Source: Candidatus Zixiibacteriota bacterium
Lineage (GTDB): Bacteria; Zixibacteria; MSB-5A5; UBA10806
NCBI GenBank assembly: GCA_020344055.1
Contig: CP070813.1
Span: forward strand, 89,091 to 153,090
Direction of reading: 5' to 3'
Length of the DNA: 64,000 bases
Numbering within the stretch: the stretch's first letter is position 1; the number at the start of each line of letters is the position of its first letter. The position numbers and the translations under genes are program-made. Below, one piece after another: positions 1,144 through 4,145 of this stretch. The notes under the pieces were generated by a model. That model was not told the origin of the DNA. It did not search any database and saw only the letters and a program-made list of their open reading frames with translations.

Positions 1144-1272
1144 ATGCGAAAACGTATTAAAAGACCCAAACGCAGAATACCTCTTCCCAAAAAGACAGAA
1201 AAGGTCCACAGGGACAGATCCAGGTATTCCAGGAAAGACAAACATAAAAAAGACCCGGGCGATAGGGGATAG
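1144..1272 (+). CDS. Small basic protein (42 aa), ArfA-like candidate
   Basis: Manual translation MRKRIKRPKRRIPLPKKTEKVHRDRSRYSRKDKHKKDPGDRG*. AAGGA RBS at 1135-1139. 20 of 42 residues are K or R. Below the ORF-track size cutoff. Confidence 0.7.
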   Translation: MRKRIKRPKRRIPLPKKTEKVHRDRSRYSRKDKHKKDPGDRG

Positions 1273-2270: not shown

Positions 2271-4145
2271 ATGATTCTAACGGGATTTTCGGGAATTAAC
2301 AAATCATATTCGGCTCGGCCCGTGCTCAAGAACGTCGCCGGTGTCGTCAAGAATGGCGACCGGATTGCCCTTCTGGGAGCAAACGGCACCGGAAAAACCA
2401 CACTCCTGGAAATTCTGGCGGGGAGGATTAACTCTGATTCCGGAAATATTGAAAAACCGAATGCCGTAAAACGGCAATACCTGCCGCAGGAGATAAAAAT
2501 CGACAATGGCGGCACGCTGTTCGAGTACGCCATGAGCGGTTTGAGCGAATTAATAAATCTGCGGGCCGCTATCGAGCATGCTCATGACAAATTGATGCTG
2601 ACAAAGGATGATCCCGGATTGCTTTCGGAACTGGGTGGCCTTCAGGAGAAATTCGAGGCGGCCGGAGGTTACGAAATGGAGACCAGAACCGGGTTGATTT
2701 TGACCGGCGTCGGATTCAAGCCTGAAGAGTTCCATATGGAGATGAATTCTCTGTCGGGAGGACAGAGGAATCGCGCTGCTCTTGCCAGAATCTTAATCAG
2801 CGCGCCCGATCTTTTGCTGCTTGACGAACCCACCAATCATCTCGACATCTCCGGCCTGGAATTCCTCGAGGAGTATCTGAAATCCTACGAAGGCGGTGTT
2901 ATTTTCGTATCTCACGACAGGACCTTCATCCAGAATACCGCGACGTTGATCTGGGAATTATCGGCGGGTAAACTGGATATCTATCAGGGAAGCTACGATT
3001 TCTATCTGGGCGAGAGGGAAAGACGTTTCATAGCGGGTTTGAAGGAGTACGAAGCGCAGAGAGAATTTATTAAAAAGACAGAGGATTTTATCAGCCGCAA
3101 TATCGCCGGGCAGAAAACCAAGCAGGCGCAGTCGCGCCGCAGGATGCTCGCCAGGCTGGAACGAGTTGATAAACCGTCCTCGGGGAAAACTATATCCCGG
3201 TTGGATTTTGGCAAAGCCGGAAGATCCACAAGGACGGTGGTGAAGTGCGAGAATCTCAACTTCTCCTATAACGATATGACTTTTTTAAGGGACATCGAAT
3301 TCGAAATAGAGAGGGGCGAAAAAGTGGGGCTTTTCGGTCCCAATGGATCGGGGAAAACCACAATTCTGAAACTTATTACCGGGCGGATAAGCCCCGATAA
3401 GGGCAGCCTTGAAATCGGCGGTAAGACATCAATAGGCTATTACGATCAGCTGGCGGAGGACCTCGATTATGCCTCCAACCCTCTGGAGACGATTCGCAAC
3501 GCTAAACCCGAGTGGATTGAGAGCCAGATCCGCGGTTTTCTGGGACGATTCTTGTTCAGCGGAGAGGATGTCTTAAGGCCGATAAAATCGTTTTCGGGCG
3601 GAGAGCGGTCGCGGTTGGCTATCGCAAAAATAATAGTCAACGAGCCCAATTTCCTGGTCCTCGACGAGCCGACGAACCATCTCGATATCAGGTCCCGGGA
3701 AGCTTTAGAAAACGCGCTGGCTAATTACGGGGGGGCGGTCTTCTGTGTTTCGCACGATAGATACTTTCTGGACAGCTTCGCCGAAAAAATATTCGCCATT
3801 GAGAACGGCACGGTGAAAATCTATTACGGTAATTACTCTTATTACAGGGAGAGAAAAGAAAAAGAGGCCGACAGGGTCAAACCGGAAAAAATAAAATCGG
3901 TTTCAGGTAAGCCCGCGAGGACCGAAAGGGCGCGAAGGGTTAATCCCCAGATATTGAATAAAATTGAAAATAAAATAGCGGCGCTGGAAGATAAAATAAT
4001 CGGTCTGGAAAATGAGATAGCCGGTCTCGAAGGATCATCCGACTGGCAGAAATTGGCCGCCATGCTGGAGATGCGGGATGAATATTACCGGGATCTCGAA
4101 TCTCTTCATCAAAAACTCGATGATTTGAAAAACGGCGATTCATAA
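2271..4145 (+). CDS. ABC-F family ATPase (ribosome-associated, Uup/YheS-like)
   Basis: Two ABC domains (GANGTGKTT and GPNGSGKTT; LSGGQ and FSGGE; two LDEPTNHLD), an inter-domain linker, a C-terminal coiled coil and no TM helices. Confidence 0.92.
   Translation: MILTGFSGINKSYSARPVLKNVAGVVKNGDRIALLGANGTGKTTLLEILAGRINSDSGNIEKPNAVKRQYLPQEIKIDNGGTLFEYAMSGLSELINLRAAIEHAHDKLMLTKDDPGLLSELGGLQEKFEAAGGYEMETRTGLILTGVGFKPEEFHMEMNSLSGGQRNRAALARILISAPDLLLLDEPTNHLDISGLEFLEEYLKSYEGGVIFVSHDRTFIQNTATLIWELSAGKLDIYQGSYDFYLGERERRFIAGLKEYEAQREFIKKTEDFISRNIAGQKTKQAQSRRRMLARLERVDKPSSGKTISRLDFGKAGRSTRTVVKCENLNFSYNDMTFLRDIEFEIERGEKVGLFGPNGSGKTTILKLITGRISPDKGSLEIGGKTSIGYYDQLAEDLDYASNPLETIRNAKPEWIESQIRGFLGRFLFSGEDVLRPIKSFSGGERSRLAIAKIIVNEPNFLVLDEPTNHLDIRSREALENALANYGGAVFCVSHDRYFLDSFAEKIFAIENGTVKIYYGNYSYYRERKEKEADRVKPEKIKSVSGKPARTERARRVNPQILNKIENKIAALEDKIIGLENEIAGLEGSSDWQKLAAMLEMRDEYYRDLESLHQKLDDLKNGDS

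Follow-up and report, generated by a model that had tools for sequence, protein, structure and literature searches.

A conserved 42-residue basic peptide of a Zixibacteria family with an ArfA-like tail, probably of a new type that rescues or binds ribosomes

Does a reading frame of 42 codons in an uncultured Zixibacteria lineage encode a relative of the ribosome-rescue factor ArfA? The frame lies in a window of 64,000 nucleotides, the whole stretch of DNA that was analysed (Candidatus Zixiibacteriota bacterium, assembly GCA_020344055.1, contig CP070813.1, positions 89,091 to 153,090 of the forward strand). Backup rescue factors differ between lineages: ArfA is found in beta- and gamma-proteobacteria, BrfA in Bacillus and ArfT in Francisella, and ArfB is distributed more widely. 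To our knowledge, no backup rescue factor has been assigned in most phyla. The original prediction, made from the sequence alone, proposed that the frame encodes a divergent rescue factor or another rRNA-binding peptide outside the Proteobacteria. By sequence comparison, the gene is not a member of the ArfA family; its product appears to carry a new head on a tail common to ArfA and phage DUF7230. It is thus probably no true ArfA, and rather a peptide of a new type that rescues or binds ribosomes. The elements on which this argument rests are as follows:

1144 to 1272, + strand: coding sequence of the 42-residue basic protein, with ATG at 1144 and the stop codon TAG at 1270-1272 (ORF list and sequence)
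1135 to 1139, + strand: Shine-Dalgarno-like AAGGA, 4 nt 5' of the ATG (read from the sequence)
1174 to 1191, + strand: head motif R11-I-P-L-P-K16, family-defining and nearly invariant, without a counterpart in ArfA or DUF7230
1195 to 1251, + strand: rear module T18-K36, TEKVHRDRSRYSRKDKHKK, common to DUF7230 and phrog_2701, aligning with ArfA 26-47 with a 3-residue gap

The product of this open reading frame (ORF) is MRKRIKRPKRRIPLPKKTEKVHRDRSRYSRKDKHKKDPGDRG, in which 10 lysines and 10 arginines account for 20 of the 42 residues (48%). The clean frame, the ribosome-binding site, the gap of 17 nt from the stop codon of the preceding GNAT acetyltransferase gene and the basic composition had all been read correctly in the original prediction. 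The 42-codon frame is a real, conserved gene of its lineage. A six-frame search of 41 relatives found orthologues in 13 of the 14 genomes of the host's Zixibacteria family (f1), with 58-83% identity across six genera, and none in the other families among these relatives. Consistently, when a profile was run against 201 genomes of the phylum, the gene turned up in 10 of the 11 f1 genomes in the sample and in none of the other 190. The 13 orthologues conserve the ATG and are 36-47 residues long, and Shine-Dalgarno-like purine runs precede several of them. In the codon alignment, invariant residues are spelled by three to five synonymous codons (Arg by AGA, AGG, CGA, CGC and CGG; Leu by CTA, CTG, CTT, TTA and TTG; Ser by AGC and TCN), and invariant Pro is also among the residues spelled by several. 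The use of so many synonymous codons at invariant residues is the mark of purifying selection on the protein. The prediction had been staked on the existence of homologues with coding-type substitutions, and these were found, with the start codon kept. An RNA element in place of a protein was rejected on the fold score (z -0.2) together with this codon pattern.

The peptide belongs to a family with the pattern R-I-P-L-P-K-[KQ]-x-E…D…Y-x-R-K, hereafter the RIPLPK family. Searched with a profile, 5.8 billion proteins yielded 84 clusters at 90% identity, and an exhaustive hidden Markov model (HMM) search of 1.84 billion representatives returned 188 clusters (50% identity) at E<=0.001; a further large protein search with the member P0200 as query returned P0200 alone. 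Column frequencies from 203 sequences aligned to the family HMM, in the numbering of the window peptide, are as follows:

Position 11: R, 100%
Position 12: I, 83%
Position 13: P, 99%
Position 14: L, 99%
Position 15: P, 99%
Position 16: K, 87%
Position 19: E, 78%
Position 22: H or F, 82%
Position 24: D, 80%
Position 28: Y, 99%
Position 30: R, 99%
Position 31: K or R, 85%
Position 33: K, 57%
Position 34: H, 33%

Many members start directly with M-K-x-R-I-P-L-P, and past the basic core the tails vary and are acidic in many cases. The members come from Zixibacteria, Acidobacteriota (L032, L036-L038) and one Planctomycetes metagenome-assembled genome (P0078), and most often from phage-like contigs. 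Among the latter are a 135-kb contig on which the family gene follows rIIA/rIIB (L040), contigs of small same-strand ORFs (L039, L042, L044) and IMG/VR contigs of 15-169 kb (L047-L050). A tblastn search of cultured phages with RIPLPK-type peptides gave no real matches. From this distribution, the gene looks mobile and phage-rich, and seems to have become fixed in a single Zixibacteria family, at one place on the chromosome.

The RIPLPK core also occurs in C-terminal zinc-ribbon fusions of at least four kinds (P0062, P0064, P0066, P0073, P0078, P0085-P0087, P0096, P0133 and P0152) and, on one viral contig, in a fusion to a protein of about 200 residues (L050:3078-3692); the domain fusions of the long relatives gave no informative Pfam or PHROG match. 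In Acidobacteriota (L037:5193-5417, L032:4035-4379), the peptide gene overlaps the stop codon of an MFS transporter gene (ATGA) and is followed by a small Cys-rich, zinc-ribbon-like ORF that echoes these fusions. The zinc-ribbon-bearing relatives weakly match bL32 in the PDB (E 0.035). These matches, together with the start of Zixibacteria bL32 (MPLPKRRHSK), suggested a bL32 (PF01783) paralogue. This was rejected: PF01783 finds canonical bL32 in 14 of 14 f1 genomes and never the peptide locus, and the bL32 HMM scores a median of 0.7 and a maximum of 4.2 bits on the family core, against a 99th percentile of 4.7 bits for shuffles.

The tail leads to the phage family DUF7230 (PF23876, cut-off 27 bits). 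A Pfam scan of the window peptide gave a single sub-threshold match, to residues 20-38 and model positions 18-36 of this family, at 22.6 bits, and an NCBIfam scan of it gave none. DUF7230 is the leading Pfam match, always partial, for 49 of 68 members of the RIPLPK family (best E 7.7e-06), and one of them, P0200, reaches the cut-off at 27.2 bits. In PHROGs, phrog_2701, phrog_18092 and phrog_6310 match the rear half only, and the PHROGs grouped with DUF7230 are phrog_2701, 6310, 18092, 1359 and 20887. When the rear motif was back-translated and searched in IMG/VR, K-D-K-x-K-Y-x-R-K-x-K-H was found joined to several different front halves. One such sequence, L090, scores 39.8 bits across the whole DUF7230 model, and with it as query small genes of cultured phages were found: Ac42 gp003 of an Acinetobacter T4-like phage (MKGKRNPIAKAVRTPAFKMQVVKDKTQYSRKEKFKKSYE), ZZ1p0006, EST35_0191 of the Pseudomonas jumbo phage PA5oct, ORF023 of the Xanthomonas phage XacN1, an unannotated ORF of phage 133 and gp101 of Rhizobium phage RHph_N34. 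Those of Ac42, ZZ1, 133, PA5oct and XacN1 are true DUF7230 members at 49-60 bits, and RHph_N34 gp101 has no Pfam match. The papers found by literature search make no mention of DUF7230 or of phage-encoded relatives of ArfA.

The RIPLPK family and the DUF7230 set align in hhalign at 94-95%, with a score of 35 against 7.8 +/- 1.75 for column shuffles (z 15.9). The window peptide aligns with Ac42 gp003 without gaps and at equal length up to the tail, sharing P15, V21, D24, Y28, R30, K31, K33, K35 and K36. The two families resemble each other in size (36-50 residues), in richness in phages, in having branches with a terminator inside the ORF, and in an identically spaced rear module, [HFV]-K-D-K-x-K-Y-x-R-K-x-K-[HFY]-K, whose core K-D-K-x-K-Y-x-R-K-x-K-[HFY] is present in the window peptide. 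They differ in the head. An alignment of 7 true DUF7230 members has invariant N6, P7, A9 and F17, but the N-P-[IV]-A-[KH] motif and Phe17 are not in the window peptide, which has K6, R7, K9 and K17 there and R-I-P-L-P-K in place of N-P-[IV]-A and F17. With this difference and a score below the cut-off, the window gene is, in terms of sequence, not strictly a DUF7230 member.

Three further observations concern this family. The phage 133 ORF (L097:2507-2617; HM114315.1, about 12481-12591, minus strand of the record) has 36 codons, KKRNPIAKAVRTPAFKMQVVRDRTKYTRKEKYKTF, and scores 48.8 bits; it has a TTG start as listed, overlaps the 3' end of annotated Acj133p022 in another frame and, with srd, dda and rnlB close by, belongs to the early region. 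Genes on the IMG/VR contigs L082-L087 carry a third head type, MKKFKKFVEELAIASGTEMMRASQMRP, on the same FKDKSKYTRKxKHKN tail. An 808-residue phage protein (L092:1018-3444) contains the tail motif internally (…QQTHKDKSKYTRKEKHKQSF…), with a phrog_2701 match at 663-685, and is an outlier for a reading as small rescue peptides. Across the branches, the heads thus appear to vary while the tail stays shared.

ArfA (YhdL, PF03889; PDB 5MDV, 5MGP, 5U4I, 5H5U) is an RF2-dependent rescue factor of beta- and gamma-proteobacteria. The ArfA sequence given in the original prediction agrees with the PDB chains, and the E. coli protein as typed, used as the positive control, scores 89.5 bits on PF03889 (cut-off 25.5 bits). 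The E-K-x7-Y-x-R-K-x-K-H spacing is, as claimed, identical in ArfA and the window peptide. When a DUF7230 profile (7 proteins) was compared with 177,635 distinct PDB sequences, ArfA chains were the six best (E 0.0074-0.069). Profile comparisons used an ArfA alignment of Enterobacterales sequences only. In hhalign, DUF7230 and ArfA align at 85% over 36 columns, which span ArfA 12-50 with NAIEALLHDPLFRQRVEK among them and leave a gap of 3 residues at the KGK loop; this alignment scores 28, against 8.2 +/- 1.9 with a maximum of 16.5 in 200 column shuffles (z 10.6). The direct comparison of the RIPLPK family with ArfA scores 14.5, above all 200 column shuffles (7.3 +/- 1.7, maximum 12.6), and keeps the predicted register from the Tyr onward. 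Family members score a median of 7.75 and a maximum of 15.3 bits on the ArfA HMM, against a 99.9th percentile of 7.4 bits for composition-matched shuffles. A bL32 control HMM stays at noise level where the similarity of the family to ArfA beats the controls. A modular superfamily of the RIPLPK family, phage DUF7230 and, more distantly, ArfA is therefore supported by these profile comparisons.

The position of each ArfA segment on the ribosome gives the shared tail a possible meaning. In the 70S-ArfA-RF2 complex, His21-Glu30 are in the A site, Pro23 packs on A1492/A1493, and residues 31-48 fill the mRNA tunnel (PMC5378476). L19, L24 and F25 bind Trp319, V198 and F217 of RF2 (PMC5378476; PMC6299226). 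The K-H pair, in which alone ArfA and BrfA are similar, occupies a pocket in the entry channel for mRNA (PMC8012679). The residues of the window peptide were mapped onto ArfA through the DUF7230 alignment:

Window P15: ArfA P23
Window V21: ArfA V29
Window K23: ArfA K31
Window Y28: ArfA Y39
Window R30: ArfA R41
Window K31: ArfA K42
Window K33: ArfA K44
Window H34: ArfA H45
Window R11: ArfA L19
Window K16: ArfA L24
Window K17: ArfA F25

By this bridged mapping, the tunnel-binding part is kept and the RF2-binding patch is not. Y28, R30, K31, K33 and H34, which spell Y-x-R-K-x-K-H in the window peptide, form the predicted tunnel segment. DUF7230 keeps an invariant Phe at the position of ArfA F25; in the window peptide, I12 and L14 are hydrophobic and invariant, yet stand in another register than the ArfA patch. 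The window peptide is like ArfA in being small and basic, in carrying the Y-x-R-K-x-K-H motif after V/E-K and a K/R pattern, in the alignment of P15 with P23, in its predicted coil, and in having sister branches with the stop-less mRNA design of arfA. Unlike ArfA, it has no counterpart of the N-terminal 14 residues, its gene ends in a stop codon of its own and lacks any RNase III or terminator hairpin, and its family is found outside the Proteobacteria and mostly in phages. BrfA of B. subtilis and ArfT of Francisella are likewise short basic peptides that depend on release factors and are unrelated or barely related to ArfA. Beyond the K-H pair, which BrfA has too, no sequence similarity of the window peptide to either was seen. 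ArfT has its own stop codon and no F25 equivalent, and works with RF1 or RF2 (PMC6299226); it belongs to a KGG-repeat family (PMC6514570), to which the window peptide has no Pfam match. The Ac42, ZZ1 and 133 genes share with ArfT and the window gene an ordinary stop codon without a hairpin.

Control by tmRNA through an mRNA without a stop codon is an established design for arfA and brfA. Such mRNAs end ahead of the stop codon (PMC10107115), so that these proteins build up only once tmRNA can no longer cope. Within the superfamily, three branches have an intrinsic terminator in the reading frame, and one of the three carries the RIPLPK head. In DUF7230, PA5oct EST35_0191 (L098:1977-2129) has an 8-bp GC-rich hairpin, CAGGACTAGGAATAGTCCTG, followed by ATTTTTT at 2087-2106, 23 nt before the end of the ORF, for which shuffles give an expectation of 0.0. 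Hairpins of 12-13 bp, 8-20 nt short of the ORF end, are present in five phage genes with the 'type A' head. In the RIPLPKQRCQAF subclade, which has the RIPLPK head, all three genes with DNA examined (L103, L104, L105) have a hairpin and T-tract in the ORF, 32-51 nt before its end and with differing stem sequences. Hydrophobic tails (…SFLSILVG, …DFLCIIY) are the coding read-out of hairpin and T-tract, which is also the case for ArfA of E. coli. The majority of the remaining RIPLPK genes lack a hairpin of this kind and end in an ordinary stop codon. In L082-L087, 12-13-bp hairpins of the form AATCGCCAGG…CCTGGCGATT lie within the last codons of each gene.

The genome in which the window lies bears on the need for a backup factor. 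The assembly is a metagenome-assembled genome of about 226 contigs joined by 100-N spacers and not a single closed contig. It encodes tmRNA (tag ADDYSYALAA) and RF1, and prfB (RF2) is not in the assembly. Because all relatives have RF2 and TGA is a frequent stop codon (it ends 455 long ORFs), the missing RF2 is an assembly gap and not a change of the code; a true loss of RF2 was rejected on this ground. Short ORFs of ArfB size with an RF-1 domain occur in 5 of the 10 sister-family genomes, in 2 of 17 others and in none of the 14 from the family with the peptide. The ORFs in these seven relatives (G016, G017, G018, G021, G023, G027 and G034) have 141-161 residues. This pattern fits a peptide that fills the backup role. 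In Acidobacteriota, only 1 of 41 relatives has the peptide gene, so that no ArfB statistics are possible there.

Taken together, the comparisons make one reading the most likely, at about even odds, and it is preferred here: the peptide would be a phage-derived, domesticated member of an ArfA-like superfamily whose tail plugs or senses the empty mRNA tunnel and which acts in ribosome rescue. The rear module (V21, D24, Y28, R30, K31, K33, H34 and flanking K/R) would be the equivalent of the part of ArfA that enters the 30S mRNA entry tunnel when it is empty, and from this match we infer binding to ribosomes with a vacant tunnel, namely those stalled at the 3' end of a broken mRNA. The R-I-P-L-P-K head would lie at or near the decoding centre, with P15 in the place of ArfA P23, and may bring in or switch on a partner, of which a class-I release factor is the likeliest, by contacts unlike the hydrophobic patch of ArfA. 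The gene would be of phage origin and would have become fixed in a single Zixibacteria family, which possesses tmRNA, RF1 and RF2 and no ArfB. Ribosome binding, the tunnel site and the rescue activity are thus all proposed from sequence and from the ArfA structures. AF2 with the family alignment predicts the 42-residue peptide as coil (pTM 0.21), which makes a fold search meaningless; a coil is expected for a peptide that becomes ordered only on its target, and in this respect it favours the preferred reading.

Several results weigh against this reading. The window peptide has no match to PF03889 at E<=10, PF03889 is not among the 25 Pfam families listed for the 68 family members, and it gives no match at E<=1 for those members that are most ArfA-like and none for DUF7230 members. 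Alone, the window peptide scores 5 bits on the ArfA HMM, which is rank 138 of 64,300 scored ORF segments of the genome. Given so weak a score and the lack of any match to Pfam's ArfA model, homology between the rear module and ArfA finds its support via the intermediate and not directly. The profile check against ArfA called for earlier therefore holds for the family and for DUF7230, and not for the window peptide by itself. The GKGS core was correctly said to be missing: the KGKGS loop is replaced by D-[KR]-S-[KR] and is 3 residues shorter in the bridged alignment. The RF2 patch L19/L24/F25 is also not kept, with R11, K16 and K17 in its place. Of the proposed divergent rescue factor outside the Proteobacteria, the link of the rear half through DUF7230 thus stands, and what is missing is the Pfam match to ArfA, the KGKGS loop and the RF2 patch. 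The expected conservation of Y-x-R-K-x-K-H is likewise seen only in part, at 99% for Y and R and at about a third family-wide for the K-H pair. All of the similarity lies in short, lysine-rich sequence, on which statistics are fragile. The complementarity with ArfB rests on effectively one evolutionary event. Finally, the window ORF and the sequence just past it show neither a terminator nor a significant fold, and the 12 orthologues scanned have their own stop codons and no internal hairpin, so that an arfA-style hairpin was rejected for the window gene and its orthologues.

The loss of the RF2 patch lends itself to a different explanation, in which the peptide plugs ribosomes and has no part in their rescue. 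It would bind at the vacant mRNA tunnel or the decoding centre and block or park ribosomes, in bacterial hibernation or in host shut-off by phages, and would recruit no release factor. This explanation, unlikely as it is, survives best among the alternatives. It accounts for a kept rear module beside R11, K16 and K17 in place of the patch, for the many relatives in early or accessory phage regions, such as L040 beside rIIA/rIIB, and for Zixibacteria genes without tmRNA-coupled regulation. However, the terminator inside the ORF, a design known only from backup rescue factors, occurs in a subclade with the same head, and it would be odd for six genera to keep an inhibitor at the same chromosomal position and for purifying selection to act on it. 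Moreover, ArfT functions without an F25 equivalent (PMC6299226).

Slightly less probable still is a generic nucleic-acid-binding polycation, DNA- or RNA-condensing or associated with the nucleoid or virion, whose likeness to ArfA would be convergent. A content of 48% K+R, the frequency of the family in phages, the several kinds of zinc-ribbon fusion, the rear motif inside the 808-residue protein L092 and the acidic tail after the basic core in many members would all suit it. However, a non-specific polycation does not need the near-invariant non-basic residues I12, P13, L14, P15, E19, D24 and Y28. The match of DUF7230 to ArfA runs through the non-basic N-terminal region of ArfA, the shuffled-composition controls do not reproduce the scores, and the internal terminators recur. 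The least probable alternative, in which the RIPLPK head docks on another universal host protein (sliding clamp, RNA polymerase, chaperone or similar) and the basic tail is an accessory nucleic-acid anchor, can draw on the 99-100% conservation of R-I-P-L-P across hosts of several phyla, as for a short linear docking motif, and on the lack of conserved neighbours outside Zixibacteria, by which the partner would have to be a core host component, but there is no match in a library of known motifs, the resemblance to clamp-binding motifs is tentative, and it is the tail that is common to DUF7230 and ArfA while the heads vary, which fits a common target for the tail.

Beyond the preferred reading of a domesticated, ArfA-like peptide, a wider proposal can be made, although it is tentative and rather more doubtful. 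The RIPLPK peptides may form a new class of rescue factors, whose different head would engage the release machinery in a new way and in which the plug of ArfA and DUF7230 is a portable module on at least four heads, spread by phages to free ribosomes stalled by mRNA destruction in infection or host defence, and domesticated outside the Proteobacteria, in Zixibacteria and Acidobacteriota. The four heads would be those of the ArfA type, the DUF7230 N-P-V-A-K type, the 'type A' EELAIASGTEMMRAS type and the RIPLPK type. If this is true, there is a large, mostly phage-borne superfamily of peptides of 35-50 residues with the ribosome-sensing tail of ArfA, which includes the DUF7230 genes of cultured T4-like and jumbo phages, and the rescue of stalled ribosomes is a common phage function. 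With the RIPLPK branch, Zixibacteria and Acidobacteriota would then have their first candidate for an alternative rescue factor, and different heads on one tail would provide a natural experiment on the activation of release factors without a stop codon.

The surroundings of the gene in the window are as follows:

578-1126: GNAT acetyltransferase gene (Pfam Acetyltransf_1), stop codon at 1124-1126
1070 to 1098, + strand: promoter-like TTGAAA-17-TAAAAT, sigma-70-like by consensus match only (pattern scan), within the 3' end of the GNAT gene
1367-1852: DUF6125 gene, 161 residues with several conserved Cys
Ending at 2149: 2x[4Fe-4S] ferredoxin gene, between the DUF6125 and ABC-F genes
2271-4145: ABC-F ATPase gene, two ABC_tran domains with ABC_tran_Xtn and CTD, starting about 1 kb 3' of the peptide ORF

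The ABC-F gene noted in the original prediction is thus present about 1 kb downstream, and its proximity looks coincidental, as had been allowed for. The order peptide, DUF6125, ferredoxin, ABC-F and aminopeptidase is found in 10 of the 12 Zixibacteria loci examined, and none of these neighbours recurs in the Acidobacteriota or phage contexts. Because the synteny is confined to one Zixibacteria family, the adjacency of ABC-F carries little functional weight, and a leader peptide or partner of DUF6125, ferredoxin or ABC-F was rejected on the same ground. Within that family, the DUF6125 gene is always next after the peptide gene, at a distance of only 13 nt in one genus (L005), and in the genus of the window it has its own conserved ATTGAC -35-like box.

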